Shown in pieces: positions 1,671 through 59,422 of a stretch of 64,000 nucleotides of DNA (positions are counted from its first letter, which is position 1; each line of letters begins with the position of its first letter). A model generated the notes under the pieces. It worked only from the letters and a program-made list of their open reading frames with translations, was not told the origin of the DNA and searched no databases. The DNA comes from a virus (taxonomy: Duplodnaviria; Caudoviricetes), in IMG/VR virus record IMGVR_UViG_3300044297_000138, positions 32,001 to 96,000 of that record. One strand, given 5' to 3'. The position numbers and the translations under genes are program-made.

Positions 1671-4600
1671 ATGTCAAATACATCAATACAGTTAAAAAAA
1701 TCCGGACAGACAGGTAACACTCCACCAAGCTTGGCTTATGGTGAGGTTGCTCTTAACTATGCTGACGGCAGACTGTATTACAAAACAGCCAGCAATGTAA
1801 TTTCTTATATTACCAACCAATATTCATTTTCAACAATCAATGTTGGTGGTAATCTAATTCTGGCCACGACCGGTTCTGATACATTAACACTACAGGCCGG
1901 CAACAACATCGGTTTCATAACTGATAGTTTAAATAACAAAATAACAATTACAGGAACAGCAGTATCTCTGGATCAATTTGCTAGAGATTGGGCCAACTCG
2001 GCCGGTTCTTATGCTAACTCGGCATTTACTCAAGCCAATACAGCCGTAACAAATGCGGCCACAGCCGACTCTAAAGCTGTTTCAGCTGGTTCATATGCCA
2101 ATTCAGCTTTTACCGTAGCAAACACCGATGTTACAAACGTTAGTATTACTGCTGGACAATATGGTAATACAACCACCATTCCAGTAATCACTATTGCTGC
2201 TAATGGTCGTATTACAGCAATTAGCAATGCTACCGTAAGTGGCGGTGGATCATCCTCATACATTTACAATGGAACCAGTAACGTTTATTTCTCAGGTACC
2301 AATGGTAATATTCTTGCCAATGTTGCTGGTAATACAATTGTAACCATTACTGCAAATGGCATCACAACAACCGGTGTAAGCAGCGACATTACTGGTGCAA
2401 ATAACGTTATAGCTAATTCGTTTGTTACAACCGGTTCTAGTGGTACAATTTCTGGCGCTAATAACATCTATGCGAATACATTCATTGGTGCTAATGGTGC
2501 GGTAATCGCTGGAATAAATGTTGTACCTTATTTACAATCAGCATACACACAAGCAAATACACCAAGTTATGTTGCCAATTCAGCCGCAATATATGCCAAT
2601 GGTGCCTTTACTCAAGCCAATACAGCCGTAACAAATGCCGCTACAGCAGATTCTAAAGCAGTAACATCTGGTTCATATGCCAACTCAGCTTTCACCGTAG
2701 CAAATACAGCCAACTCATCTGCAACATCCGCTGGATCTTATGCTAACTCGGCATTTACCGCAGCAAATACAGCTAGTTCAACAGCAACCTCAGCTGGTTC
2801 TTATGCAAATGCAGCCTTTATACAGGCTAATGCCGCATATGCAAAGGCAAATACTGGCGGCGGTGCAGCTTCTTATATTGCTAACGGAACAAGCAATGTA
2901 TATTTTGCTTCAGCTAATGGTAATATTATAGCCAACGTTGCTGGTAATACAATTGTAACTATTACCGCAAACGGTATCACAACAACTGGTGTGAGTAGTG
3001 ACATTACTGGTGCGAATAACGTTATAGCCAACTCATTTGTTACAACTGGTTCAAGTGGTACAATTTCAGGTGCCAATAATATCTATGCAAATACATTTAT
3101 TGGTGCAAATGCAGCTTTGATTGCTGGAATAAATGTTGTACCATATTTACAATCAGCATTTACACAGGCTAATTCTGCATACAATCAAGCCAATAATTCT
3201 TTACCTTTGGCTGGTGGAACAATTACTGGTGATTTAAGTGTATCTGGCAATTTAACTATTCTTGGTACACAAACAACTATCAATACAACATCAATTGTAT
3301 TAAATGATCCGTTGTTGTATTTGGCAAATAATAATTATTCATCCGATTTATTAGACATTGGTATTATAGGTCACTATAATTCAACAGCAAATGCACACAC
3401 TGGTGTGTTTAGAGATCCAAATAGAAAAGAATGGATTTTCTTTGAAGGTTATACTCCTGAAGTTGGTTCAAACAATTTAATTAATATTGCTGATCCAAGT
3501 TTTGCATATGCTAACGTTTATGCAAACACCTTTAAAGGTAATTTGATTGCAAATAACATATATGTAAGTGGTTATAATGTATTTACATATATCACAAATG
3601 CATATAGTCAAGCCAACTCTGCGGCAACCTACGCCAATGGTGCATTTGTTCAGGCTAATGCTGCGTTCTTACAGGCTAATACACCAGATTATGTTGCCAA
3701 CTCGGCAGCGTTATACGCTAATGGTGCCTTTGCACAAGCAAACGCTGCGTTCAATGCTGCTAATACTGGCTCAGCATACTATATTAGAAATGGTACCAGT
3801 AACGTCTATTTCTCTGGAAGTAATGGTAACATTCTGGCCAACGTTGCGGGAAATACAGTTGTAACCGTTACCGCTTCAGGAATAATAACATCCGGATCAG
3901 GAACCGGTGATATTTCTGGTGCGAATAACATTTATTCCAATAATTTTATTGGTGCTAATGGTATAGTAGTTGCTGGAATAAATGTTGTAACATATCTACA
4001 ATCAGCATTTGGTCAAGCAAACTCAGCAGCAACTTATGCTAATGCGGCCTTTACACAGGCAAATACTGATGTTACAAATATTAGTGTAACCGCCGGACAA
4101 TATGGTAACACCACTACAATTCCTGTCATTACGATTGCGGCCAATGGTCGTATTACTGCAATCAGTAATGCTGCGGTAAGTGGTGGCGGTGGTGCTTCTG
4201 GTTCTTATATCTATAATGGAACCAGTAATGTTTATTTCTCCGGAAGTAACGGCAATATTATTGCTAACGTTGCTGGTAATACAATTGTTACTGTTACTGC
4301 TAATGGTCTTGTTACGAGTGGTGTTAGTGGTGATATTTCTGGCGCCAATAATATTTCGGCAAACTCATTCATTACAACCGGATCTGGTGGTAATATAACC
4401 GGCGCCAACAATATATACGCCAACTCGTTCATTGGTGCCAACGGTGCGGTAATTGCTGGTATCAATGTTGTACCATATTTGCAGTCTGCATTTGGTCAAG
4501 CAAATTCCGCAGCAACATATGCTAACGGAGCTTTTACACAGGCTAATGCGGCATACAATCAATCAAACACTTATATATGGCCAGCAGCCAATTCAGCTGG

Positions 4601-6950
4601 TTCATATGCCAATGCGGCCTTTACACAGGCAAATACTGATGTAACAAATATCAGTATAACGTCCGGTACATATGGTAATTCAACTTATATTCCTATCATT
4701 ACAGTTTCGGCTAACGGTAGAATTAATACAATTAGTACCGTTGCAGCTTCTGGTGGAGGAGGCGGTTCTGGTTCTTACATCTATAATGGAACAAGTAACG
4801 TATACTTCACAACAACAAATGGTAACATTGTTGCAAACGTTGCTGGTAATACGATTGTAACTATTACATCAGCAGGTTTGACAACATCTGGTGCCGGTTC
4901 AGGTGATATTTCTGGTGCAAATAACGTCTACGCCAACAATCTCATTGGTGCCAACGGTGCGGTAATTGCTGGTATCAATGTTGTACCATATTTGCAGTCT
5001 GCATTTGGACAAGCGAATGCTGCATTTAATGCTGCTAATACAGGCGGCTCAGCATACTATATTAGAAATGGTACCAGTAACGTCTATTTCTCTGGAAGTA
5101 ATGGTAACATTCTGGCCAATGTTGCTGGTAATACAATTGTTACTGTTACTGCCAATGGTCTTGTTACGAGTGGTGTTAGTGGAGATATTAGTGGTGCCAA
5201 CAACATCTCTGCAAATTCGTTTATAACAACTGGTTCAGGCGGCAATATAACCGGCGCCAATAGTATTTATGCCAACTCATTCATTGGTGCCAACGGTGCG
5301 GTGATTGCTGGCGTTAATGTTGTACCATTTTTAACTGCTGCGTTTTTACAAGCAAATACTCCAAGTTATACGGCCAATTCCGCTGCAACATATGCCAATG
5401 GTGCTTTTATACAAGCAAATACAGCAACAACCAATGCGGCAACAGCCGACTCTAAGGCAGTATCGGCAGGTTCATATGCGAACTCCGCCTTTGGTGTGGC
5501 CAATTCAGCAGCAACATATGCCAATGGTGCTTTTGCACAAGCGAATGCTGCTTTCAATGCTGCCAATACAGGTGGTTCAGCTTACTATATTAGAAATGGC
5601 ACCAGTAACGTTTATTTCTCTGGTGCCAATGGTAATATTCTTGCCAATGTTGCTGGTAATACCGTATTGACCATCTCATCATCCGGAATGATAACCTCAG
5701 GTTCTATTCCTGGTGATATTTCTGGTGCAAATAACATCTATTCTAATACAATAATTGCCTATAGTAGTGCAACAGTTGCTGGTGTTAACGTTGTTCCATA
5801 TATTCAATCTATATTCACACAAGCCAATTCTGCTTATGGTTCACAGAACACAACTGGAACATATGCTAACGCTGCGTTCACCGTAGCAAATACTGCAAAC
5901 ACAACTGCAACATCAGCTGGTTCATATGCCAATGCGGCCTTCATACAGGCAAATACCGATGTAACAAACATTAGTATTACATCTGGTACATATGGCAATG
6001 CAACTTATATTCCTATTGTTACAGTTTCTGCAAATGGTAGAATTAATTCCATCAGTACCATTGCATCCGCTGGTGGCGGTGGCGGCGCAGGTACAGACCA
6101 ATATGCAAGAGATACTGCAAACGCAGCCTTCATAAAAGCCAACTCAGCCTATGCACAGGCAAATACTGGAGGAGGTGGAGGTGGTGCAGGTTCATCCGTT
6201 ATTGCAGTTGATACCTATACAGCTAACGGCGCACAAACGACCTTTGCATTATCATATTCAACATCATCAAACAATGTGATTGTTAATATTGATGGTGTAT
6301 TACAATTAAAGTCTGCATATTCCGTTTCAGGAAACACAATCACATTTACTGGAACTCCAGCAAATACTGCGGTTGTTGAAATAACAACACTAACTGGAAC
6401 AAATCTAAGTTATTATAACAGAACTTATACTGGTGATAATACATCAACAACATTTACCACGACAACTGGTGTTTCTAATGCAAGCATTATTGTTACAGAA
6501 AACGGTGTTGTTCAAGAACCTGGTGTTGATTACTATATAAGTGGTGCGAATGTAATCTTTACAACTGCACCATCAACTGGTGTGAAAATTGGAATCCGTG
6601 AATTAGCATCTACTGCTCTTGTTAGTGCAAATATTCAATTTGCTTACGATCAAGCTAATGCAGCATTCTTGAAAGCAAATACACCGGATTATGTTGCCAA
6701 CTCGGCTGCATTATATGCTAACGGTGCTTTTGCACAAGCCAATGCTGCATACAATCAGGCAAATACCGACTACACAACAATTACAGTTACTGGCGGTGTA
6801 TACGGAAATTCAAATACAATTCCAGTAATTACTGTTGCAGCTAACGGCCGTATTACTGCTATAAGTAATGTGGCGAGCTCTGGTGGTTCAGGTGGCGGCG
6901 GCGGTGTAAATCAAACCACAACAATAATATTAGCGAAAATATTCAGTTAA
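1671..6950 (+). CDS. long repeat-rich tail fibre/structural protein (1759 aa)
   Basis: N-terminal IQLKKS...PSLAYGEVALNYADGRLYYK fibre motif; multiple internal A/N/G/T-rich repeats. Confidence 0.8.
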   Translation: MSNTSIQLKKSGQTGNTPPSLAYGEVALNYADGRLYYKTASNVISYITNQYSFSTINVGGNLILATTGSDTLTLQAGNNIGFITDSLNNKITITGTAVSLDQFARDWANSAGSYANSAFTQANTAVTNAATADSKAVSAGSYANSAFTVANTDVTNVSITAGQYGNTTTIPVITIAANGRITAISNATVSGGGSSSYIYNGTSNVYFSGTNGNILANVAGNTIVTITANGITTTGVSSDITGANNVIANSFVTTGSSGTISGANNIYANTFIGANGAVIAGINVVPYLQSAYTQANTPSYVANSAAIYANGAFTQANTAVTNAATADSKAVTSGSYANSAFTVANTANSSATSAGSYANSAFTAANTASSTATSAGSYANAAFIQANAAYAKANTGGGAASYIANGTSNVYFASANGNIIANVAGNTIVTITANGITTTGVSSDITGANNVIANSFVTTGSSGTISGANNIYANTFIGANAALIAGINVVPYLQSAFTQANSAYNQANNSLPLAGGTITGDLSVSGNLTILGTQTTINTTSIVLNDPLLYLANNNYSSDLLDIGIIGHYNSTANAHTGVFRDPNRKEWIFFEGYTPEVGSNNLINIADPSFAYANVYANTFKGNLIANNIYVSGYNVFTYITNAYSQANSAATYANGAFVQANAAFLQANTPDYVANSAALYANGAFAQANAAFNAANTGSAYYIRNGTSNVYFSGSNGNILANVAGNTVVTVTASGIITSGSGTGDISGANNIYSNNFIGANGIVVAGINVVTYLQSAFGQANSAATYANAAFTQANTDVTNISVTAGQYGNTTTIPVITIAANGRITAISNAAVSGGGGASGSYIYNGTSNVYFSGSNGNIIANVAGNTIVTVTANGLVTSGVSGDISGANNISANSFITTGSGGNITGANNIYANSFIGANGAVIAGINVVPYLQSAFGQANSAATYANGAFTQANAAYNQSNTYIWPAANSAGSYANAAFTQANTDVTNISITSGTYGNSTYIPIITVSANGRINTISTVAASGGGGGSGSYIYNGTSNVYFTTTNGNIVANVAGNTIVTITSAGLTTSGAGSGDISGANNVYANNLIGANGAVIAGINVVPYLQSAFGQANAAFNAANTGGSAYYIRNGTSNVYFSGSNGNILANVAGNTIVTVTANGLVTSGVSGDISGANNISANSFITTGSGGNITGANSIYANSFIGANGAVIAGVNVVPFLTAAFLQANTPSYTANSAATYANGAFIQANTATTNAATADSKAVSAGSYANSAFGVANSAATYANGAFAQANAAFNAANTGGSAYYIRNGTSNVYFSGANGNILANVAGNTVLTISSSGMITSGSIPGDISGANNIYSNTIIAYSSATVAGVNVVPYIQSIFTQANSAYGSQNTTGTYANAAFTVANTANTTATSAGSYANAAFIQANTDVTNISITSGTYGNATYIPIVTVSANGRINSISTIASAGGGGGAGTDQYARDTANAAFIKANSAYAQANTGGGGGGAGSSVIAVDTYTANGAQTTFALSYSTSSNNVIVNIDGVLQLKSAYSVSGNTITFTGTPANTAVVEITTLTGTNLSYYNRTYTGDNTSTTFTTTTGVSNASIIVTENGVVQEPGVDYYISGANVIFTTAPSTGVKIGIRELASTALVSANIQFAYDQANAAFLKANTPDYVANSAALYANGAFAQANAAYNQANTDYTTITVTGGVYGNSNTIPVITVAANGRITAISNVASSGGSGGGGGVNQTTTIILAKIFS
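2030..6870 (+). repeat. intragenic repeat modules of the 1759-aa fibre
   Basis: 7x YIxNGTSNVYF...NGNIxANVAGNT; 5x TDxTxIxxTxGxYGNxxxIPxxTxxANGRI; many SAxxYANxAFxQAN units; several near-identical at DNA level. Confidence 0.85.
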
Positions 6951-36993: not shown

Positions 36994-38349
36994 ATGTTTC
37001 TATCTGAAGAACTACAAAATAAATGGCAACCAGTTTTGGAACATCCAGAACTAGAAGCCATTAAGGATCCATACAAGAAGGCCGTCACTGCTGTTATCCT
37101 AGAAAACCAACAGCGTGAAATGACAGCTGCTGCTCAGCAGTTGAACGAAACAACCTACTCTGCTGCTCCTACCAACGTTACAGGTGCTGGTGTTCAAAAC
37201 TTTGACCCTATCCTTATCTCTTTGGTTCGCCGTGCATTGCCTAACCTTATCGCTTATGACGTTGCTGGCGTTCAGCCAATGACAGGCCCAACCGGCTTGA
37301 TCTTCGCAATGCGTGCTAAGTATAATGCACAAGGTACAGCTGGTTCAGGTGATTCTAACGAAGCTTTCTTCAACGAAGCTAACACAATCTTCTCAGGTTT
37401 GGGTTCAGGTACAGGCGCATCATTTGGTTTCGCTGGTAACAACACAACCGACACAGCAACAAGCGCAGTTCGTGACTTGACAGCTAACACCTTCACAACT
37501 GGTGTTGGTATGGCCACAGCTACTGCTGAAGGTTTGGGTGCAGATACCTCTACAGGTATGTTCAACCAAATGGCTTTCTCTATTGAGAAAGTTACTGTTA
37601 CTGCTAAGAGCCGTGCATTGAAGGCTGAATACTCTCTAGAACTTGCTCAAGACTTGAAAGCAATCCATGGTTTGGATGCTGAAACAGAGTTGAGCAACAT
37701 TCTTTCTACAGAGATTCTTGCTGAAATCAACCGTGAAGTTATCCGTACAATCTATACAGTTGCCGTTCCAGGTGCTCAGTATGGTACAACAACAGCTGGC
37801 GTGTTTGACTTAGACACCGACTCTAACGGTCGTTGGTCTGTTGAACGTTTCAAAGGTTTGATTTTCCAAATTGAACGTGATGCAAACGTCATCGCTAAGC
37901 AGACTCGTCGTGGTAAGGGTAACGTTCTGATCGTTTCTTCAGACGTTGCTTCTGCTATGGCTATGGCTGGTGTTCTTCAGTATACACCTGCTCTAAGCGC
38001 TGACTTGCAAGTTGACGATACAGGCAATACATTTGCTGGTATGTTACATGGCCGCATCAAGGTTTACATTGACCCATATTTCGGTGGTTACACTTCTAAC
38101 CAAGAATTGGTAACTATCGGTTATAAGGGTTCTTCACCTTATGATGCCGGTTTGTTCTACTGCCCATACGTTCCTCTACAAATGGTTCGTGCAGTTGACC
38201 AGTACACATTCCAACCAAAAATTGGTTTCAAGACCCGTTATGGTATGGTTGCAAACCCATTTGCAGAAGGTACTGATGTTGGCCAAGGTCGCTTGAGCGC
38301 TCGTGCTAACAAATACTATCGTCTATTCCAAGTTAAGAACTTGATGTAA
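36994..38349 (+). CDS. gp23: major capsid protein gp23
   Basis: GVQPMTGPTGLIFAMR; ELAQDLKAIHGLDAE; FQPKIGFKTRYG. Confidence 0.98.
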   Translation: MFLSEELQNKWQPVLEHPELEAIKDPYKKAVTAVILENQQREMTAAAQQLNETTYSAAPTNVTGAGVQNFDPILISLVRRALPNLIAYDVAGVQPMTGPTGLIFAMRAKYNAQGTAGSGDSNEAFFNEANTIFSGLGSGTGASFGFAGNNTTDTATSAVRDLTANTFTTGVGMATATAEGLGADTSTGMFNQMAFSIEKVTVTAKSRALKAEYSLELAQDLKAIHGLDAETELSNILSTEILAEINREVIRTIYTVAVPGAQYGTTTAGVFDLDTDSNGRWSVERFKGLIFQIERDANVIAKQTRRGKGNVLIVSSDVASAMAMAGVLQYTPALSADLQVDDTGNTFAGMLHGRIKVYIDPYFGGYTSNQELVTIGYKGSSPYDAGLFYCPYVPLQMVRAVDQYTFQPKIGFKTRYGMVANPFAEGTDVGQGRLSARANKYYRLFQVKNLM

Positions 38350-52554: not shown

Positions 52555-52593
52555 AAAGGGGCTCTTGACAGAGCCCTTTCTTTTTGATATAAT
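52555..52593 (+). terminator. terminator overlapping a consensus sigma70 promoter
   Basis: GGGCTCT-TGAC-AGAGCCC plus T-tract; TTGACA (52565)-17 bp-TATAAT (52588). Confidence 0.8.
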
Positions 52594-52791: not shown

Positions 52792-52868
52792 GCGCCTGTA
52801 GCTCAGTTGGTCAGAGCAGGGGACTCATAATCCCTTGGTCCTAGGTTCAAGTCCTAGTGGGCGCACCA
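52792..52868 (+). tRNA. tRNA-Ile2 (CAT, lysidine type)
   Basis: Cloverleaf; GGGGA-CT-CAT-AA-TCCCT arm; C4/C5; CCA end. Confidence 0.85.
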
Positions 52869-52955
52869 TCTATCAACGACATAGAAAAAATCAATTAGAT
52901 TTTAAATTAAAATAGTGATATACTATCATACATAATTTTATTTAAGGAGAAATCT

Positions 52956-53093
52956 ATGAAGCAATATATGTGTGAAGTTTGTGGTCATATTCACGATGAA
53001 GAAACTATGGGTAAGTTGGAAAATTTGCCAAAGTATGCTAATTGTCCTGAATGTGGTGTTGATGTGAGAGAAGCATATAAAGAAGTTCAATGA
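52956..53093 (+). CDS. rubredoxin-like protein (45 aa)
   Basis: MKQYMCEVCGHIHDEE...LP...CPECG; AAGGAG RBS; too short for the ORF track. Confidence 0.85.
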   Translation: MKQYMCEVCGHIHDEETMGKLENLPKYANCPECGVDVREAYKEVQ

Positions 53094-53521
53094 AAGAAAA
53101 ATTTCGTAATGCATATATGAAAACGGCCGAGACATTCGCAGAATTGTCCTCGGCTCGTAGACTTCATGTCGGTGCGATTATTGTAAAAGATGACCGCATT
53201 ATAAGTATTGGTTATAATGGTATGCCTTCTGGTTGGGACAACAATTGTGAAAACGATTTTGGATTGGATTTTAATGGTAACCGGACTCTAGTAACAAAAC
53301 CCGAGGTGTTACATGCTGAAACTAATGCAATCGCTAAGTTGGCAAGATCAAACGAATCTGGCCTTGGTTCTACTATGTTTATCACTCATGCTCCTTGTCT
53401 GGACTGTGCAAAACTGGTATATCAGTCTGGTATCAATACCGTTTACTATCGGAACAGTTATCGTGATGAAAATGGCATACAATTCTTGGAAAAAGCGGGA
53501 GTAACAATAGAAAAGATTTGA
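53090..53521 (+). CDS. cd: dCMP deaminase
   Basis: GYNG; HAETNAI; PCLDC. Confidence 0.93.
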   Translation: MKEKFRNAYMKTAETFAELSSARRLHVGAIIVKDDRIISIGYNGMPSGWDNNCENDFGLDFNGNRTLVTKPEVLHAETNAIAKLARSNESGLGSTMFITHAPCLDCAKLVYQSGINTVYYRNSYRDENGIQFLEKAGVTIEKI

Positions 53522-53549
53522 CCGCTAAATAGGTCCAGGAGGGTGATCT

Positions 53550-54059
53550 ATGAATTTGAAGGTAATCAACTGTCCAGACAAGAACTTTAAACCTTACATA
53601 GAAAAGGCCGCTCTCTTTTACGCCAAGGAGTTGATTCCCAATACCAAAATTAGGAATAATTGCTTCACCACCATAAGATTTGATGGTAATTTGGAAGAAT
53701 ACGGATACGCATCCGTTGAAGATTACAACACCAGAAAACAAGCCAGAGAGTTCTTGATAGAAATACACCCTGGAATTGGTGCCAGAAAGATCCTGGAGAC
53801 TTTGGCACACGAAATGGTGCATGTCAAACAATATATACACAACGAAACCAACGATGACCTATCGGTCTGGCATGGTAAAAAATATAACTCCGATAAAATG
53901 GACTACTGGAGTCACCCATGGGAAATAGATGCCCATGGCCGTGAAACTGGCCTCTTAACTAAGTTTGCTATAAGTGAATGTTTATGGGAAGTTTTTGAAG
54001 AATTTAGGAATCCGAATCTACCAATAGTTTCTATTCCTATTAAGTGGAAGAAAATATGA
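53550..54059 (+). CDS. HExxH zinc metallopeptidase-like protein
   Basis: TLAHEMVHVKQ...PWEIDA. Confidence 0.75.
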   Translation: MNLKVINCPDKNFKPYIEKAALFYAKELIPNTKIRNNCFTTIRFDGNLEEYGYASVEDYNTRKQAREFLIEIHPGIGARKILETLAHEMVHVKQYIHNETNDDLSVWHGKKYNSDKMDYWSHPWEIDAHGRETGLLTKFAISECLWEVFEEFRNPNLPIVSIPIKWKKI

Positions 54060-54562
54060 GCCATGTTCATTGGGAACATAAAACATACGGTGCAGAAAAA
54101 ATTGAAGTTTTCCAGTGGGGTGAAGGTGCTACCTGTAAAATAGGAAAATATTGTTCTATTGCAGACAAAGTAAAAGTTTTTTTAGGTGGTGACCATAAAA
54201 TAAATTGGACTAGCACTTTTCCACATAGAGAACAAACAGGAACAAAAGGCGACATTATTATTGGCAACGATGTTTGGTTGAGTCACGGTGTTACCATCAT
54301 GTCCGGTGTTACAATAGGTGATGGTGCGATTGTTGCAGCCAATTCACATGTGGTTAAAAATGTTGAACCTTACACCATCGTTGGTGGAAATCCCGCAAAG
54401 TATATAAGACATAGATTTAGTGGCAACATAATAGATTTACTATTGCAATTAAAATGGTGGGATTTACCGGACGATGCGGTAAAAAGAATAGAAGATGTTT
54501 TATGTTCTGAACCGAACCAAGAAAAATTACTTGAGTTGGTAAAAGAACACAGAAGTATTTAA
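54056..54562 (+). CDS. CatB/Vat-like hexapeptide O-acetyltransferase
   Basis: IGKYCSIA; IGNDVWL; GVTIGDGAIVAA; VGGNPAK; WWD. Confidence 0.9.
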   Translation: MSHVHWEHKTYGAEKIEVFQWGEGATCKIGKYCSIADKVKVFLGGDHKINWTSTFPHREQTGTKGDIIIGNDVWLSHGVTIMSGVTIGDGAIVAANSHVVKNVEPYTIVGGNPAKYIRHRFSGNIIDLLLQLKWWDLPDDAVKRIEDVLCSEPNQEKLLELVKEHRSI

Positions 54563-54582
54563 AAATATTTTTACGAAATCGC

Positions 54583-54611
54583 TTGCCAACGGCAGCAAAT
54601 GCCTATATAAT
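54583..54611 (+). promoter_or_regulatory. sigma70 promoter of the leader/attenuator
   Basis: TTGCCA-17 bp-TATAAT. Confidence 0.8.
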
Positions 54612-54643
54612 ACAAACATATTGAAATTTTTACGAAAGAAAAA

Positions 54644-54748
54644 ATGTTATCCATACATAGATCGACACTAAAGGCCTGTGAGTATCGCACACCATTTATT
54701 GGTAGCGATAATCAGTCATGGCTAAAGGGGTCTTGTATAGGAGCTTAA
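54644..54748 (+). CDS. putative attenuator leader peptide MLSIHRSTLKACEYRTPFIGSDNQSWLKGSCIGA
   Basis: 34-codon ORF between a promoter and a terminator; its 3' codons are complementary to the terminator 5' side; only a weak A-rich RBS. Confidence 0.6.
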   Translation: MLSIHRSTLKACEYRTPFIGSDNQSWLKGSCIGA

Positions 54749-54781
54749 TACAAAAGTAGTAAAAGAAACTTCAAACACAAG

Positions 54782-54814
54782 ACCCAGACCCTCAAAAGTC
54801 TGGGTTTTTTGTTT
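54782..54814 (+). terminator. intrinsic terminator (attenuator) before the tRNA array
   Basis: ACCCAGAC-8 nt-GTCTGGGT-TTTTTGTTT. Confidence 0.85.
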
Positions 54815-54837
54815 GGTGTGTCATAAAAACAACACCA

Positions 54838-54886
54838 TTGACAAAGCAATCTGGCTTTGTTATAATAGAAAATCGTTCTTTAAAAA
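54838..54886 (+). promoter_or_regulatory. consensus sigma70 promoter plus rrn boxA-like element
   Basis: TTGACA-17 bp-TATAAT, then CGTTCTTTAAAAA at 54874-54886. Confidence 0.75.
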
Positions 54887-54903
54887 TTTGTAGAGTCATT
54901 TGT

Positions 54904-54979
54904 ACCCTCTTAGCCAAGCTGGTAAGGCATCGGATTTTGATTCCGACATGCGGTGGTTCAAGTCCATCAGGGGGTGCCA
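54904..54979 (+). tRNA. tRNA-Gln (TTG)
   Basis: Cloverleaf, CCA. Confidence 0.9.
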
Positions 54980-55064
54980 TACAAAAACACATCAGTATCG
55001 AAAAGGTACGTGCGACTGAAAAGCCGGGGTTTGTGAGCTTGGTGTGTTTCTATATGGTTTTAAT

Positions 55065-55156
55065 GGAAGTGTGGCAGAGTCCGGTTTATTGCACCTGTCT
55101 TGAAAACAGACGATCTGTAAAAGGGTCCGTGAGTTCGAATCTCACCGCTTCCGCCA
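55065..55156 (+). tRNA. tRNA-Ser (TGA)
   Basis: Cloverleaf, long variable arm, CCA. Confidence 0.9.
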
Positions 55157-55264
55157 ATATGTTGAGCTGGGAATTTGGCCTTCGATGTATCTAATAAGAA
55201 ACTAGCAAAACTATTAGAGTTGGCATCCTTCCTTGCTAGTTAATCAGCTCAACAAAATATTTAT

Positions 55265-55354
55265 GGAGAGTGGGCAGGATGGTAATGCAGCGGATTGCTA
55301 ATCCGTAGACTTACGAAAGTAGGTCACAGGGTTCGACTCCCTGACTCTCCGCCA
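55265..55354 (+). tRNA. tRNA-Ser (GCT)
   Basis: Cloverleaf, long variable arm, CCA. Confidence 0.9.
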
Positions 55355-55422
55355 AGTTGTGTTGCAACTGATTTGAGGAACTCCCGTACACCTCAAAGAG
55401 AATGACAAAAAAACGGGGCCAT

Positions 55423-55514
55423 GCCAGCGAGACTTGGTAGTCAGAGAGGTCTTATAAGCCTTTTAGCGCCAGATTAGCGTTCTTGAGTGAGTTCGATTCT
55501 CACCGCTGGTACCA
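55423..55514 (+). tRNA. atypical tRNA with TAT anticodon (nominal Ile), long variable arm
   Basis: GCCAGCG/CGCTGGT acceptor; GAGGT-CT-TAT-AA-GCCTT; GTGAG-TTCGATT-CTCAC; CCA. Confidence 0.75.
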
Positions 55515-55519
55515 ATCAT

Positions 55520-55595
55520 GTAGGTGTGACCCGAAAGGCTAGGGAACGGATTGCAAATCCGTTTTATGCAGGTTCGATTCCTGTCACCTACTCCA
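55520..55595 (+). tRNA. tRNA-Cys (GCA)
   Basis: Cloverleaf, U73, CCA. Confidence 0.9.
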
Positions 55596-55690
55596 TAATA
55601 CTTGATTGATTTTATGGAGAACTAAAGTGTTACTTGCCAAAATTATTAATTGTGATACAATAGAGTTTCTTTCATTGAATGAGGTATCAA

Positions 55691-55912
55691 ATGATTACTG
55701 AAAAGCAAATCAAAAAATTGAAAAAATTTGGTTATAAAGTTTTTGGAGTTGTTGGTCATAAAGAAGGAACACATTGCTTTGATTATTATGGGTATGAAGT
55801 ACCTAAAATTCGGAGCATTTGTCCCGCTTATGTTGCACACAAAGGAGAAATGAAAGCGTGGGAAGCAGTTTTGAAATTTCATCAAGAAGAAGTTGAAGGT
55901 GTTTTAATTTAA
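55691..55912 (+). CDS. hypothetical protein within the tRNA array
   Basis: GAGG RBS; upstream TTGCCA...TACAAT promoter-like sequence. Confidence 0.6.
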   Translation: MITEKQIKKLKKFGYKVFGVVGHKEGTHCFDYYGYEVPKIRSICPAYVAHKGEMKAWEAVLKFHQEEVEGVLI

Positions 55913-55922
55913 AAATTTGTGT

Positions 55923-55997
55923 GCTCGGTTCGTCTATCGGTTAGGACGCTGGCCTTTCACGCCGGAAAGACGAGTTCGATTCTCGTACCGAGTACCA
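55923..55997 (+). tRNA. tRNA-Glu (TTC)
   Basis: Cloverleaf, CCA. Confidence 0.9.
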
Positions 55998-56211
55998 TAT
56001 TAAATTGCATTGGGTTACCAATTCCAATAGGTGACTGTCAGGGATAGATTCAGCAGCCGTGCTGACCTTGACACAATCACATGAAGCCTGACGATGGTGT
56101 TGGAAGTAATTGGTTCGTAATGTGGACATAACCTTATCGGCGGACGAAGCCGTGAGAAGTCTCCTGGAGTGGAGAAACGGTTGTGACACCCCAATGTAAT
56201 TTAGTATGGTA
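55993..56211 (+). ncRNA. structured RNA closed by a 22-bp stem
   Basis: 55993-56014 pairs with 56190-56211; several inner helices. Confidence 0.6.
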
Positions 56212-56337
56212 TTATTTGTTTTGCTGATGTAAGCTCAGAGGTACGATCAAACGTTATGTAACTATGTAAATAAACGGTAATTCTTGCAAGTAAGTCCGTT
56301 GAGCATAGCATATAGTGCGTCAGCAAAACAAATGGTA
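56210..56337 (+). ncRNA. structured RNA closed by a 22-bp stem
   Basis: 56210-56231 pairs with 56316-56337. Confidence 0.55.
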
Positions 56338-56341
56338 TTAT

Positions 56342-56416
56342 GCAGGTGTAACTCAGAGGCAGAGTATCTGGCTTTTAACCAGAGAGTCGAGATTTCAAAA
56401 TTCTCCACCTGTACCA
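56342..56416 (+). tRNA. tRNA-Lys (TTT)
   Basis: Cloverleaf with a slightly irregular T arm, CCA. Confidence 0.85.
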
Positions 56417-56425
56417 GTAGAATTT

Positions 56426-56510
56426 GGAGGTGCCGCCGTAATGGTATGGCAGGAGACTGTAAATCTTCCGGCTTGCGCCACAGTAGGTTCGATCCCTACC
56501 ACCTCCACCA
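56426..56510 (+). tRNA. tRNA-Tyr (GTA)
   Basis: Cloverleaf, variable arm, CCA. Confidence 0.9.
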
Positions 56511-56515
56511 AATTT

Positions 56516-56590
56516 GGTCCGTAAGTGTTCATGGACGCACGTAAGCTTGTCACGCTTAAAGAAGGGGCTCGATACCCCTACGGACCGCCA
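56516..56590 (+). tRNA. tRNA-Asp (GTC)
   Basis: Cloverleaf, CCA. Confidence 0.85.
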
Positions 56591-56603
56591 TATATAATTT
56601 TAT

Positions 56604-56678
56604 TCCCCGTTAGCTCAGCGGCAGAGCAGTTGACTGTTAATCAATTGGTCCCTGGTTCGATCCCAGGATGGGGAGCCA
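56604..56678 (+). tRNA. tRNA-Asn (GTT)
   Basis: Cloverleaf, CCA. Confidence 0.92.
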
Positions 56679-56684
56679 AATATT

Positions 56685-56761
56685 CGGAGTGTAGCACAGC
56701 CTGGTAGTGCGCTTGCTTTGGGAGCAAGAGGTCCAAGGTTCGAATCCTTGTACTCCGACCA
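56685..56761 (+). tRNA. tRNA-Pro (TGG)
   Basis: Cloverleaf, CCA. Confidence 0.92.
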
Positions 56762-56766
56762 TCTTT

Positions 56767-56842
56767 GGGCCAGTAGCTCATCTGGGAGAGCATCTGCTTT
56801 GCAAGCAGAGGGTAGCGGGTTCAAGTCCTGTCTGGTCCACCA
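56767..56842 (+). tRNA. tRNA-Ala (TGC)
   Basis: Cloverleaf, G3:U70, CCA. Confidence 0.92.
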
Positions 56843-56845
56843 AAA

Positions 56846-57110
56846 CGTGCCGTCTAGTCAACGGCTACTCCGACCCGGAGGACGAGAAGTGGTGTGATGG
56901 CCACGGGTGGTTCTGAGATTTGGAATATAAGTCTCACAGTAGAAATACTGCGGTCTAACCAAACCGGCGCTGGCAATGCGATAACGGCCCCTGTCGGGGA
57001 GCGGGTGGAAGGTGCGTGTGATGGTGGTGTGGTATGAGTGCCTAAAAGGCGTCCTCAGAGTCCATTAACTGCTTGATGCGCTATAATTACCGCCGAGGGG
57101 TGCCAGAGCA
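56846..57110 (+). ncRNA. GC-rich multi-helix ncRNA (about 265 nt)
   Basis: Hairpins GCCGT/ACGGC, CTCCG/CGGAG, TGAGATTT/AAGTCTCA, CAGTA-GAAA-TACTG; nested CTGGCA/TGCCAG, CCCCT/AGGGG, GTGCGT/ATGCGC. Confidence 0.65.
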
Positions 57111-57113
57111 TTT

Positions 57114-57188
57114 GGTGATATAGCATAGAAGGATATGCACGGGTTTCATACGCCTGCAAGGTTGGATCGTTACCAACTATCACCACCA
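57114..57188 (+). tRNA. tRNA-Met (CAT, probably elongator)
   Basis: Cloverleaf, atypical T-loop ATCGTTA, CCA. Confidence 0.8.
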
Positions 57189-57194
57189 AATTTT

Positions 57195-57270
57195 CGGTCC
57201 TTGGTGAAACTGGAGATCATCTGAGTCTACGAAATTCAAGTTGGGGGCTCGAATCCCTCAGGACCGGCCA
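57195..57270 (+). tRNA. tRNA-Arg (ACG)
   Basis: Cloverleaf, CCA. Confidence 0.85.
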
Positions 57271-57275
57271 AATTT

Positions 57276-57350
57276 ACCGAGTTAGCTCAGCGGTAGAGCA
57301 GCGTCTTGATAAGGCGTTGGCCAGTGGTTCAATCCCACTACTCGGTACCA
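57276..57350 (+). tRNA. tRNA-Ile (GAT)
   Basis: Cloverleaf, CCA. Confidence 0.9.
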
Positions 57351-57352
57351 TT

Positions 57353-57427
57353 ATCTCGCTGGTGTCAACGGCAGCATGACGGTCTCCAAAACCGTGGGAC
57401 GGGGTTCGAATCCCTGGCGGGATGCCA
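57353..57427 (+). tRNA. tRNA-Trp (CCA)
   Basis: Cloverleaf, CCA. Confidence 0.9.
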
Positions 57428-57448
57428 TTTTTTATAAAGGTGATTGAT

Positions 57449-57925
57449 ATGAAAAAATTCAATGTAGAAGAAGTCAAAACATTCCTTGCAACACAAGGAC
57501 CTGATACCCGTGTATACTTGGGTGCCGACTCCGAAAGAATTAGAGTTAACGGCGTATGGTATGCTGACTATGCATTGGCTGTTGTTGTTCATATTGATGG
57601 CCGCCACGGTTGTAAAATTTTCGGTTATGTTGACCGTGAATTGGATTACGACCATAAGAAAAGTAAACCTGCTATGCGTCTGATGACAGAAGTATATAAG
57701 GTTTCAGAATTGTTTCAAGAATTGCAACATTCACTAGAAGATTTCCATGTTGAAGTTCACTTGGACTTAAATAAGGATGAAGAATTCGGTTCTTCTTGTG
57801 TTGTGCAACAAGCGATTGGTTACATCAAAGGTACATGTAACATGACACCTATGGTTAAACCAGACGCACCTGCCGCTTCTTTCTGTGCAGACCGACTGAA
57901 ACGGATTTTAGCGGAACAAGAATGA
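57449..57925 (+). CDS. RNase H-like YkuK/DUF458 family protein
   Basis: YLGADS...AVVVH...G..IF...L.TEV...EVHLD...KP.A.AAS..ADR. Confidence 0.75.
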   Translation: MKKFNVEEVKTFLATQGPDTRVYLGADSERIRVNGVWYADYALAVVVHIDGRHGCKIFGYVDRELDYDHKKSKPAMRLMTEVYKVSELFQELQHSLEDFHVEVHLDLNKDEEFGSSCVVQQAIGYIKGTCNMTPMVKPDAPAASFCADRLKRILAEQE

Positions 57926-57926
57926 T

Positions 57927-58001
57927 GCAGGAATTAGTTTAGTGGCAAAACCACGGGTTGTGATTCCGTTATCAAGAGTTCGATTCTCTTATTCCTGCCC
58001 A
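57927..58001 (+). tRNA. tRNA-His (GTG)
   Basis: 8-bp acceptor with G-1:C73, CCA. Confidence 0.9.
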
Positions 58002-58003
58002 AT

Positions 58004-58079
58004 GCTTCGTTAACTCAGTTGGTAGAGTGCCTCCCTTACAAGGAGGATGTCGGCAGTTCGAACCTGTCACGAAGCACCA
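58004..58079 (+). tRNA. tRNA-Val (TAC)
   Basis: Cloverleaf, CCA. Confidence 0.92.
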
Positions 58080-58084
58080 ATATT

Positions 58085-58160
58085 GCAGCTCTAGCTGATG
58101 TGGTCATAGCGGCGGTCTGAAGAACCGTTGAACCAGGTTCGATTCCTGGGGGTTGCACCA
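58085..58160 (+). tRNA. tRNA-Phe (GAA)
   Basis: Cloverleaf, CCA. Confidence 0.9.
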
Positions 58161-58161
58161 A

Positions 58162-58235
58162 GCTCTCATAGTATAATGGTATTACACACCCTTGGTAAGG
58201 GTGAAACACAAGTTCAATTCTTGTTGAGAGCACCA
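58162..58235 (+). tRNA. tRNA-Thr (GGT)
   Basis: Cloverleaf, CCA. Confidence 0.9.
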
Positions 58236-58423
58236 GATTGTTTTAATCTAGTCATTTTCTTTTTAATGTAAGCTGTTCTGGCAACATCATGTTCACATAT
58301 TTCAGCCAACAAAGCAATAATATAACCTAAATCATAGGCTAGTTTTTGTCCAGAAGTTTTGTGCTGGTTGCCAGAATTCTGGAGTTGTTCTATAATATAG
58401 TCTGTAAGTTGTTTTTTATTCAT
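58214..58423 (-). CDS. hypothetical protein antisense within the tRNA array
   Basis: 69-aa ORF filling the spacer; ATAAATA late-promoter-like motif just upstream on the minus strand. Confidence 0.55.
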   Translation of the reverse strand: MNKKQLTDYIIEQLQNSGNQHKTSGQKLAYDLGYIIALLAEICEHDVARTAYIKKKMTRLKQSGALNKN

Positions 58424-58437
58424 AGAAATATTTATTT

Positions 58438-58514
58438 GCCCCGGTGACGGAATTGGTATACGTGTTGGTCTTAGAAGCCAAATTTTGAGAGTTCGAGTCT
58501 CTCCTGGGGCACCA
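58438..58514 (+). tRNA. tRNA-Leu (TAG), short variable loop
   Basis: Cloverleaf, CCA. Confidence 0.88.
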
Positions 58515-58519
58515 AATTA

Positions 58520-58594
58520 CTGGCCATAGTATAATGGATAATACAGCTGCCTTCTAAGCAGTCAATCGGGGTTCGATTCCCTGTGGCCGGACCA
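58520..58594 (+). tRNA. tRNA-Arg (TCT)
   Basis: Cloverleaf, CCA. Confidence 0.9.
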
Positions 58595-58597
58595 AAT

Positions 58598-58682
58598 GCG
58601 ACTATGGTGAAATAGGTAGACACAGGAGACTTAAAATCTCCCGACTTCGGTCGTGCTGGTTCGATTCCGGCTAGTCGCACCA
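58598..58682 (+). tRNA. tRNA-Leu (TAA)
   Basis: Cloverleaf, variable arm, CCA. Confidence 0.92.
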
Positions 58683-58690
58683 AAAAGTTA

Positions 58691-58719
58691 TTGACATTGA
58701 TAGAAAGATCATATATAAT
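58691..58719 (+). promoter_or_regulatory. consensus sigma70 promoter inside the array
   Basis: TTGACA-17 bp-TATAAT. Confidence 0.85.
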
Positions 58720-58729
58720 ATAAATGTAA

Positions 58730-58804
58730 GCGGGATTGGTGCTAGTGGTAACACGGGACCTTGCCAAGGTTCAGTTGCGAGTTCGATCCTCGCATCCCGC
58801 TCCA
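58730..58804 (+). tRNA. tRNA-Gly (GCC)
   Basis: Cloverleaf, CCA. Confidence 0.9.
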
Positions 58805-58809
58805 AATGA

Positions 58810-58884
58810 GCTCCGTTAGTTCTAGTGGTAAAACATCGGTTTTGTAATCCGAGGTCGGGTGTTCGATTCACCCCCGGAGCACCA
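58810..58884 (+). tRNA. tRNA-Thr (TGT)
   Basis: Cloverleaf, CCA. Confidence 0.88.
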
Positions 58885-58892
58885 GATAATGC

Positions 58893-58921
58893 TTGACTCT
58901 ACAATTTTTTTGTGATATAAT
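58893..58921 (+). promoter_or_regulatory. sigma70 promoter inside the array
   Basis: TTGACT-17 bp-TATAAT with TGTGA extension. Confidence 0.8.
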
Positions 58922-58941
58922 TTGTTTTATTAAATATTAAT

Positions 58942-59014
58942 GCGGGTATTCTCCTGGGAGAGAATTTAGCCTTCCAAGCTAACAGAATCGGTTCGAATCC
59001 GGTTACCCGCTCCA
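58942..59014 (+). tRNA. tRNA-Gly (TCC)
   Basis: Cloverleaf with a compact D arm, CCA. Confidence 0.85.
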
Positions 59015-59021
59015 GTTTTAT

Positions 59022-59088
59022 GCGGTATGGTATTAACTGTCTGAGGGTCCACCTTAGAAGTGTTGTGAGAATCAATAATACCGCTCCA
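59022..59088 (+). ncRNA. tRNA-like RNA / pseudo-tRNA
   Basis: GCGGTAT/ATACCGC acceptor plus T-CCA; central TCTGAGG/CCTTAGA stem; no canonical D or T arms. Confidence 0.6.
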
Positions 59089-59094
59089 TTCAAT

Positions 59095-59169
59095 CGCAGG
59101 GTGGAGAAGTAGTAACTCATCAGGCTCATACCCTGAAGATCGGCGGTGCGAATCCGTCCCCTGCAACCA
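59095..59169 (+). tRNA. initiator tRNA-fMet (CAT)
   Basis: C1:A72 mismatch, CAT anticodon, CCA. Confidence 0.85.
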
Positions 59170-59182
59170 ATTTGAGGTAATT

Positions 59183-59422
59183 ATGAGACCATTGCATAAT
59201 AAAGTTATTGTTGAAAGAATTCCTGGTGAAACTACCACATCATCAGGAATTGTCTTACAAAGATCCGATGAGGTAGACAAAGCAAAAGTTATTGCGATTG
59301 GTCCAGATGTTGAAGAGGTTTCTGTCGGTGATACTGTCCTATTAGATTGGAACAGAGCAGTCAAGGCAGGAGACAATTTTGTTATTACAGTAGACAATAT
59401 CGTTTTAATTTACGGAGAGTAA
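59183..59422 (+). CDS. groES: GroES-like co-chaperonin
   Basis: MRPLHNKVIVER...TTSSGIVL...VIAIGP...VGDTVL. Confidence 0.88.
   Translation: MRPLHNKVIVERIPGETTTSSGIVLQRSDEVDKAKVIAIGPDVEEVSVGDTVLLDWNRAVKAGDNFVITVDNIVLIYGE

Follow-up and report, generated by a model that had tools for sequence, protein, structure and literature searches.

A phage tRNA-Ile(UAU) with a second anticodon-type arm, and its relatives, as putative TilS-independent decoders of AUA

Introduction

How AUA can be read while AUG is not misread is a long-standing question in translation, and the known answers to it are lysidine, agmatidine and an adapted IleRS. The accessible part of Taniguchi et al. 2013 (PMC3575796) describes a TilS-independent tRNA-Ile2(UAU) in Mycoplasma mobile, where IleRS itself is adapted (Arg865) and the tRNA is of normal class I type; the same text gives a 360-fold preference of E. 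coli IleRS for LAU over UAU in kcat/Km, and the single change W905R as relieving the preference against UAU. Allo-tRNAs, as far as the available text of Mukai et al. 2017 (PMC5389517) goes, have an acceptor/T branch of 8/4 or 9/3 and include a UAU group. A tRNA-Ile(TAT) of Mycobacterium mucogenicum lies in an array by an HNH endonuclease and is expressed, with TilS present, according to the accessible text of Behra et al. 2019 (PMC6582537), which regards such arrays as horizontally transferred and speaks of 'two ways to decode AUA'.

The tRNA(UAU) gene considered here lies in a window of 64,000 nucleotides, bases 32001-96000 of the 174.5-kb record of an uncultured, T4-like phage. A first-pass annotation had noted a UAU-anticodon tRNA with a minimal D arm and a long variable arm, which was borne out by ARAGORN and by the predicted fold. 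It had also called the gene aberrant, whereas covariation places it in a large family under structural selection, and it had described neither the 7-bp anticodon stem nor the GAU in the variable loop. Like the M. mobile tRNA, the window tRNA would read AUA as Ile without lysidine and faces the same problem of an ordinary IleRS and U34 (PMC3575796, accessible part), whereas it differs in its extra GAU arm, its location on mobile DNA, its 4-nt D loop and its 7-bp anticodon stem. It resembles the allo-tRNA(UAU) group, which is Sec-like with a long variable arm, has predominantly UAU and occurs in Acidobacteria and phages (PMC5389517, available text), although its family has a 7/5 branch. With bacterial tRNA-Sec (RF01852) it shares a 4-nt UGGU-type D loop, a lengthened anticodon stem and a long variable arm; unlike tRNA-Sec it carries UAU rather than UCA, a 7/5 rather than 8/5 branch and A73 rather than G73, and its match to RF01852, the best in Rfam at relaxed thresholds, scored 34.8 bits, under the 47-bit threshold. 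The M. mucogenicum case parallels the window phage, with its CAU and UAU tRNAs, and the Pyrinomonadaceae arrays described below, with a variable arm going unmentioned in the available text (PMC6582537). A variable arm bearing GAU is nowhere described for a tRNA-Ile(UAU) in what full-text searches of openly accessible papers returned, nor in the accessible text of PMC5389517, PMC7609411, PMC5377504, PMC6115819 and PMC6582537.

The phage and its tRNA array

In its major capsid protein the phage shares ~64% identity with Methylophilales phage Melnitz, Pelagibacter phage Mosig and cyanomyophages. ARAGORN called 28 tRNA genes at 52792-59169, all on the + strand. Rfam at gathering thresholds recovered 26 of the 28, missing tRNA(UAU) and the tRNA-Asp at 56516. 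Two tRNA-Ser genes of 90-92 nt adjoin tRNA(UAU) in the ARAGORN calls, and a tRNA-Cys begins 5 nt past its CCA. Three Ile tRNAs are present, with the anticodons GAU (57276), CAU (52792) and UAU (55423). The CAU gene, which the first-pass annotation had taken for a lysidine-type tRNA, indeed shows 84.2% identity, across 96% of its length, with an E. coli gene with CAT annotated as tRNA-Ile by PGAP. The following features were assigned in the array:

52792..52868 (+): tRNA-Ile2(CAU) of lysidine type, a second AUA route; C4-G69, C5-G68 (ARAGORN, sequence)
54779-54808: terminator-like hairpin (consensus scan only)
54838..54866 (+): promoter-like site TTGACA-17-TATAAT, 12/12, directly upstream of the array block with tRNA(UAU) (consensus scan only)
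55423..55514 (+): whole tRNA(UAU) gene, with discriminator A73 at 55511 and encoded CCA at 55512-55514 (ARAGORN, fold)
57276..57350 (+): ordinary tRNA-Ile(GAU) (ARAGORN, Rfam, sequence)

A consensus sigma-70 promoter probably drives transcription of tRNA(UAU) together with the other genes of the array. Perfect 12/12 sigma-70 sites (TTGACA-17-TATAAT) precede array blocks at 52565-52593, 54838-54866 and 58691-58719, and two of the three adjoin or sit within terminator-like hairpins. A search for a boxA leader gave 0 matches within 1 mismatch of the consensus used. Among the contigs of four RNA-library runs, a single 151-nt metatranscriptome contig from a close variant covered tRNA(UAU) (55421-55528); it is possibly DNA carry-over, does not show the ends, and shows neither transcription nor processing.

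Neither a TilS nor an IleRS gene is encoded in the phage genome, and no partner enzyme was found with Pfam and PHROGs among the 20 ORFs next to the array, where the sole nuclease-like hit was an ORF with the RNaseH-like domain PF04308. This 167-aa ORF lies inside the array (57422-57925, +; PF04308 'RNaseH_like', E 1.8e-14; phrog_11311) and may be an RNA-processing or mobile nuclease. A megablast search of 54800-59300 against 50,697 phage records for named close relatives of the array returned single-tRNA matches only.

Structure of the tRNA(UAU) gene

ARAGORN called the gene as a 92-nt tRNA-Ile(tat) at 55423-55514 (+) with the anticodon at gene position 31, and its minimum free energy fold is a cloverleaf (-31.3 kcal/mol, z = -2.78, equalled by 1 of 200 shuffles). 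Its parts are:

55423..55429 (+): 5' strand of the 7-bp acceptor stem, pairing with 55504-55510; top pair G1.U72
55430 (+): linker before the D arm, a single A8 (sequence, fold)
55431..55442 (+): shrunken D arm, 4-bp stem GACU/AGUC and 4-nt loop UGGU (sequence, fold)
55444..55464 (+): decoding arm, 7-bp stem and loop CUUAUAA, with UAU at 55453-55455 and U33 and A37 present (ARAGORN, fold)
55465..55481 (+): variable ('GAU') arm, 5-bp stem AGCGC/GCGUU and 7-nt loop CAGAUUA (fold)
55482..55486 (+): unpaired CUUGA between variable arm and T arm, its 5 nt being the length of a class I variable loop
55487..55503 (+): T arm GUGAG-UUCGAUU-CUCAC (fold)

The gene thus has what is expected of a tRNA cloverleaf: a 7-bp acceptor stem, a 5-bp T arm with a UUCRANU loop, a 7-nt anticodon loop with U33 and a purine at 37, and a discriminator followed by CCA. 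The canonical core, a U8+N9 linker and a 7-11-nt D loop with G18 G19, is replaced by the lone A8 and the loop UGGU. In the fold the D stem consists of G9-C20, A10-U19, C11-G18 and U12-A17, with A21 next; the D arm ACT-TGGT-AGT, as it had first been drawn, is correct in the pairs that it contains and one pair short, since it leaves out G9-C20, which is kept in 45 of 45 short-D relatives. The combination of a UAU anticodon, A37 after U36 and A73 is that expected by sequence of a TilS-independent AUA reader. The gene did not reach the gathering threshold (29 bits) of RF00005 in Rfam; it scored 100.3 bits against family model R1, of whose seed its own sequence is part.

Two other ways of drawing the molecule were rejected. 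An 8/5 (Sec-like) reading through U55422-A55511 is ruled out because the nucleotide preceding G1 varies (T 41, A 14, C 8 and G 2 in the 65 distinct viral copies described below, among the matches listed) and CCA directly follows A73. The variable arm displays GAU (55472-55474) at loop positions 3-5, as an anticodon would be, and was considered as the true decoding arm; this is also ruled out, because A replaces U33 in its loop and, in family members whose D arm is normal, the canonical position is taken by the UAU arm.

A large family under structural selection

Viral sequences were scanned with a degenerate pattern of UGGU, CUUAUAA, a long gap and a T loop, which matched at least 118 contigs. 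On the matched loci and the window, ARAGORN made 91 'tat' calls, two of which were the window itself. Of the matches, 100 passed a stem-based parser that required 6 or more of the 7 acceptor pairs; they represent 67 distinct sequences among the matches listed, and two of these (L105 and L076; poor acceptor, or G73 without GAU) were dropped before alignment A1, leaving 65. Among the matches listed, both the GAU of the variable-arm loop and A73 are invariant in the 65 distinct viral copies, neither of them being part of the search pattern; in the same 65, A precedes GAU in at least 90%, the shrunken D arm is common to 45 and CCA is encoded in 45. Together with a scan of cellular genomes, the pattern scans give a tally of well over 100 viral and ~80 cellular copies. 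As the UGGU loop and the other pattern-fixed parts were imposed by the search patterns, their conservation is not evidence.

The first-pass annotation had named a sequence unconstrained in related phages as an outcome that would speak against a function. Instead, in the 45 short-D relatives the structure given above is paired in 98.1% of 1168 cells, compared with 66.5% in shuffles (0 of 500 reaching the observed value) and 37-48% with slid partners, and double-sided changes occur in 25 of 26 pairs. All 7 acceptor pairs covary, with G.U at 1-72 in 38 of 45; the acceptor pairing rate is partly selected, because the parser required at least 6 of 7 pairs, and the other four helices are unselected. 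The 4 pairs of the D stem are 100% paired with double changes, the anticodon stem is 93% paired with double changes in 7 of 7 pairs, and the 5 pairs of the T stem are 100% paired with double changes in 4. The outermost T pair (columns 68-84 of the short-D alignment) is CG in 17, GC in 17, AU in 7 and UA in 3, and this covariation sets the T stem at 5 bp and the acceptor at 7 bp. Among the 13 closest variants in the window's own clade, pairing is preserved through 28 double and 10 single changes and is lost at 1 pair; a further 22 changes affect unpaired positions, all of them in the D, anticodon and T loops. Mutual information on alignment A2, used to look for tertiary pairs, gave a signal that only mirrored three clades.

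A covariance model of the 45 was applied to two copies that its seed did not include, those of Synechococcus phage S-SRM01 (98.3 bits) and Sinorhizobium phage Phosso (82.7 bits). No Rfam family matched over the gene at Rfam thresholds in 20 short-D relatives, and BLAST of two members (L062 and L042) against 50,697 phage records gave no match. On these data the window gene truly belongs to a large family that is mostly unannotated and under structural selection. The adjoining tRNA-Ser genes of similar length and the score below the Rfam tRNA threshold would suit a decayed tRNA-Ser duplicate or a prediction artefact, to which we give next to no weight: there are hundreds of copies, every stem shows compensatory changes, non-seed copies score highly, and in our view covariation refutes it.

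Two anticodon-type arms

Each family member has two anticodon-type hairpins, one with the decoding loop (C/U)U-UAU-A-N and one with GAU at the variable position. We define this two-arm tRNA-Ile(UAU) family by sequence, as having a UAU decoding loop, a hairpin at the variable position whose loop displays GAU at positions 3-5, A73 and a linker of 5-6 nt to the T arm, all of which are found in the window gene. A further, arm-anchored scan used only the commonest variable-arm core and the T loop and left the anticodon free. It gave at least 119 viral loci, and N-U-UAU-A-N stood 15-25 nt upstream of the GAU arm in 69 of 69 distinct sequences among the matches listed; also among the matches listed, 69 of 70 had A73 and 37 of 70 were of the short-D type.

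Across the family the stem of the variable hairpin has 4-6 bp. A 7-nt loop with GAU at positions 3-5 is found in 44 of 65 viral copies (among the matches listed) and 57 of 78 distinct cellular copies, and most of the remaining loops are the same loop closed by one extra pair. The GAU loop departs from a true Ile anticodon loop at two positions: '33' is A, and '37' varies among U, C, G and A. The arm is joined by 0-1 nt on its 5' side and 5-6 nt on its 3' side, the latter in 60 of 65 viral (among the matches listed) and 69 of 78 distinct cellular copies. Such a 3' linker is unlike that of tRNA-Ser, tRNA-Leu and tRNA-Tyr and equals a class I variable loop. At two viral loci an ordinary 74-nt class I tRNA(tat) lies ~120 nt downstream of the two-arm tRNA(UAU) (L094 496-569 and L115 500-573).

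Meaning of AUA in the phage

The phage genome is 38% G+C, and AUA accounts for 719 of 3325 Ile codons (21.6%), or 13.95 per 1000. Despite two dedicated tRNAs, AUA still behaves as a slow codon. We compared codons of 37 conserved ORFs with syntenic stretches of ~35-41 kb in five related phages, excluding subject residues that were themselves encoded by ATA. At 87 AUA sites (285 aligned cells) the aligned residues were I 0.37, V 0.16, L 0.16 and M 0.06. Reference codons gave I 0.44 for AUU and 0.46 for AUC, L 0.56-0.61 for Leu codons and S 0.24-0.44 for Ser codons. The profile of AUA is thus like that of AUU and AUC and not like those of Leu or Ser codons, so AUA is an Ile codon in this phage, and since its sites align with Ile-type residues, proteome-wide recoding to Ser or Leu is excluded.

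This bears on the earlier suggestion that the product might be a class II tRNA which SerRS or LeuRS aminoacylates and which inserts Ser or Leu at AUA. Its long variable arm is of that kind, and in the accessible text of PMC9976931 A73 is the main Leu determinant as well; allo-tRNAs with non-Ser anticodons can insert Ser or Ala in E. coli according to the available text of PMC5389517. We nevertheless regard such charging as very improbable. Besides the Ile-like composition of the 87 sites, where I, V and L stand in the proportions seen at AUU and AUC, a tRNA-Ser is disfavoured by A73, which is invariant (65/65, among the matches listed), compared with the G73 of E. coli tRNA-Ser (PMC9976931, accessible part); a tRNA-Leu, which would have A73, is disfavoured by the low share of Leu at AUA sites (0.16, compared with 0.56-0.61 at Leu codons). 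The linker geometry is also unusual for a class II arm, and the conserved triplet of the variable loop, GAU, is the Ile anticodon. Of the three functions that the annotation had put forward, a TilS-independent AUA decoder fits best.

With respect to gene content, the major capsid gene (36994-38349, +) has 0 AUA in 451 codons, and large tail-fibre-like ORFs have 18-34 each.

Carriers among cultured phages and cells

Three cultured phages carry two-arm copies. Pectobacterium phage PhiM1 (JX290549 25840-25937) has the loop CUUAUAA and the variable loop CAGAUAA and is a family member; its tRNA-Ile is annotated but uncharacterised, its existence being all that the accessible text of PMC5377504 and PMC6115819 states, and it is the only tRNA of the phage (PMC6115819). 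ARAGORN called no tRNA in this copy (L348 241-338), despite the annotation in the record and its clear membership, so detection of the two-arm family depends on the tool. Phosso (PV764938) has an annotated tRNA-Ile(tat), the only annotated tRNA in the stretch seen, and S-SRM01 (MW015081) has a two-arm copy with nothing annotated at the site. All three share with the window gene a CUUAUA(A/C) loop, a GAU variable-arm loop and A73. Phosso and S-SRM01 also have its short D arm, whereas PhiM1 has a D arm of normal length and a longer variable region. Since Rfam misses the window gene and 20 relatives, S-SRM01 is unannotated and PhiM1 is missed by ARAGORN, counts of phage tRNAs and studies of codon adaptation undercount genes of this kind.

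In prokaryotes, with each species represented by one genome, a pattern scan matched 93 loci, of which 11 with fewer than 6 of 7 acceptor pairs were dropped, leaving 82 with a good acceptor (78 distinct). Forty-three cellular copies are near-identical, 91-93 nt long and with a normal D arm; going by the record titles, Pyrinomonadaceae account for most of them and other Acidobacteriota MAGs for the remainder, and they sit in tRNA arrays, usually beside tRNA-Ile(GAU). The idea that cellular carriers lack TilS was rejected, as 5 of 5 carrier Pyrinomonadaceae genomes have a TilS that passes the curated cut-off of TIGR02432, so that the two-arm tRNA is no replacement for lysidine there. Neighbours at seven other cellular loci include a CI-type repressor, a phage integrase, an AAA_24 ATPase, ParA and a Thoeris pair. 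Given these mobile-type neighbours and the tRNA arrays, the cellular copies look accessory or mobile.

Several of these loci have further features. In one Pyrinomonadaceae array (L135), the two-arm tRNA is flanked by a Ro60-vWA protein (648-2222, -) and an HNH endonuclease (4568-4993, -). Proteins related to Ro60 are partners of Y RNAs, which resemble tRNAs. In Sulfitobacter brevis, a class I Trp/Tyr-type aminoacyl-tRNA synthetase (L133 1303-2304, -) and ParA flank a two-arm tRNA with a very short D arm, and in Oxalicibacterium solurbis the two-arm tRNA adjoins a Thoeris ThsA/ThsB defence pair (L152 2868-4243, -).

Proposed function and mechanism

The likeliest job of tRNA(UAU) is AUA->Ile decoding for the phage. 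Judged by its sequence, it is very probably a working elongator that reads AUA as Ile through a UAU anticodon free of unmodified C and so has no need of TilS; the position of a family copy as the sole tRNA of PhiM1 was counted toward this reading. TilS independence would not be strictly needed in every carrier, since the phage has its tRNA-Ile2(CAU) and TilS is present in 5 of 5 Pyrinomonadaceae carriers.

The role of the GAU arm is a separate matter. We tentatively suggest, at a little under an even chance, that the arm and the invariant A73 form a recognisable handle for the IleRS of any host. Bacterial IleRS would read the anticodon and A73 and take U34 poorly, and the accessible text of PMC9976931 gives bacterial Ile identity as the anticodon and A73 plus t6A37 and minor stem and D-loop elements. 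A GAU arm combined with A73 could offer the host IleRS something that it recognises, while A33 would bar the arm from use on the ribosome; a phage, prophage or array could thereby carry an AUA decoder free both of host TilS and of a specially adapted IleRS. For a mobile tRNA, host TilS is unreliable and a bare UAU is a poor IleRS substrate, so that a GAU hairpin, inherited strictly together with UAU and A73, would be the simplest answer at the level of sequence. The GAU arm might even replace the UAU arm in stacking beneath the D stem, since the 5-6-nt linker after it has the length of a class I variable loop. That the triplets for the synthetase (GAU) and the ribosome (UAU) lie on different arms, perhaps swapping by restacking on the D stem and so bypassing both TilS and the dislike of U34, is conceivable though on balance doubtful; if this were true, the short-D subtype would represent additional streamlining around a Sec-like core. 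The full explanation, a portable TilS-free AUA->Ile decoder whose GAU arm and A73 aid acceptance by IleRS, has in our judgement an even chance of being right.

Several observations weaken the handle. Position '37' is not A in most members, and t6A37 is a strong determinant for bacterial IleRS in the accessible text of PMC9976931; in a normal L shape a short variable arm would miss the anticodon pocket of IleRS. The short-D subtype lacks G16, D20 and D21, which the same text reports as important for isoleucylation and editing, and this also counts against it. The plain 74-nt UAU tRNA beside the two-arm tRNA at L094 and L115 indicates that a GAU handle is not obligatory in phages.

It is somewhat unlikely, in our assessment, that the tRNA decodes AUA as Ile while its GAU hairpin is the site of a U34 modification enzyme, a structural brace or a nuclease shield rather than an IleRS handle. 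The evidence for a real tRNA (ARAGORN, the fold, covariation and AUA as Ile) suits this equally well, as do the departures of the GAU loop from a true Ile anticodon loop at 33 and 37, and the rewired core of the short-D subtype would fit a brace that replaces lost D-arm and core contacts. A UAU tRNA misreads AUG on E. coli ribosomes, according to the available text of PMC3575796, so that an extra control would be useful. A brace or shield, however, needs neither an invariant anticodon-like GAU (65/65) nor its exclusive link to UAU (69/69), both among the matches listed; the GAU loop is also found in members whose D arm is normal, so the arm is no substitute for a D arm; and no candidate gene for a modification enzyme was found with Pfam and PHROGs among the 20 ORFs beside the array.

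Less probable still is a non-decoding RNA, whether a tRNA-shaped decoy or regulator that binds IleRS or acts on a T-box-type sensor, or a sponge for host defences that target tRNAs; we consider it improbable. An Ile T-box reads a displayed GAU together with an uncharged NCCA end, and the same two elements occur here. The family also lies on mobile DNA, with a prophage-like repressor and integrase, a Thoeris island and tRNA arrays adjoining the cellular loci examined, and Mukai et al. raised regulatory roles for odd Acidobacteria tRNAs (PMC5389517, accessible part). The molecule has nevertheless kept the decoding features of the UAU loop (U33, A37 and the 7-nt loop; 69 of 69 distinct sequences among the matches listed), and its acceptor, T arm, A73 and CCA are of the type of a chargeable tRNA. 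It stands among ordinary tRNAs in a phage with 719 AUA codons, and a family copy is the sole tRNA of PhiM1 in the available text of PMC6115819.

If AUA->Ile decoding aided by the GAU arm is true, a widespread self-contained tRNA on phages, prophages and arrays would be a fourth route to AUA, and the arm would be the first natural identity element built as a second anticodon-like arm. Its function is directly testable, as there are cultured carriers (PhiM1, S-SRM01 and Phosso) and the kinetics of E. coli IleRS with UAU are published.

Other RNAs in the array and at related loci

The tRNA-Asp(gtc) called by ARAGORN at 56516-56590, which was missed at the Rfam gathering threshold, has the T loop GGCTCGATACCCC rather than the usual TTCRANT, and odd T loops are found elsewhere in the array in the tRNA-Lys at 56342 and the CAU tRNA at 57114 (ATCGTTA). 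Another CAU tRNA, at 59095-59169, has a C1xA72 mismatch, which is a hallmark of initiator tRNA. The CAU tRNAs of the phage thus seem to comprise an initiator (59095), an elongator-Met-like tRNA (57114) and the Ile2-type tRNA (52792). At two other viral loci, an alphaproteobacterial-type permuted tmRNA (114.4 bits; L020 1798-2143, -) lies beside a tRNA array and a two-arm tRNA, and a wcaG RNA motif (87.7 bits; L006 208-306, -) lies near a two-arm tRNA.
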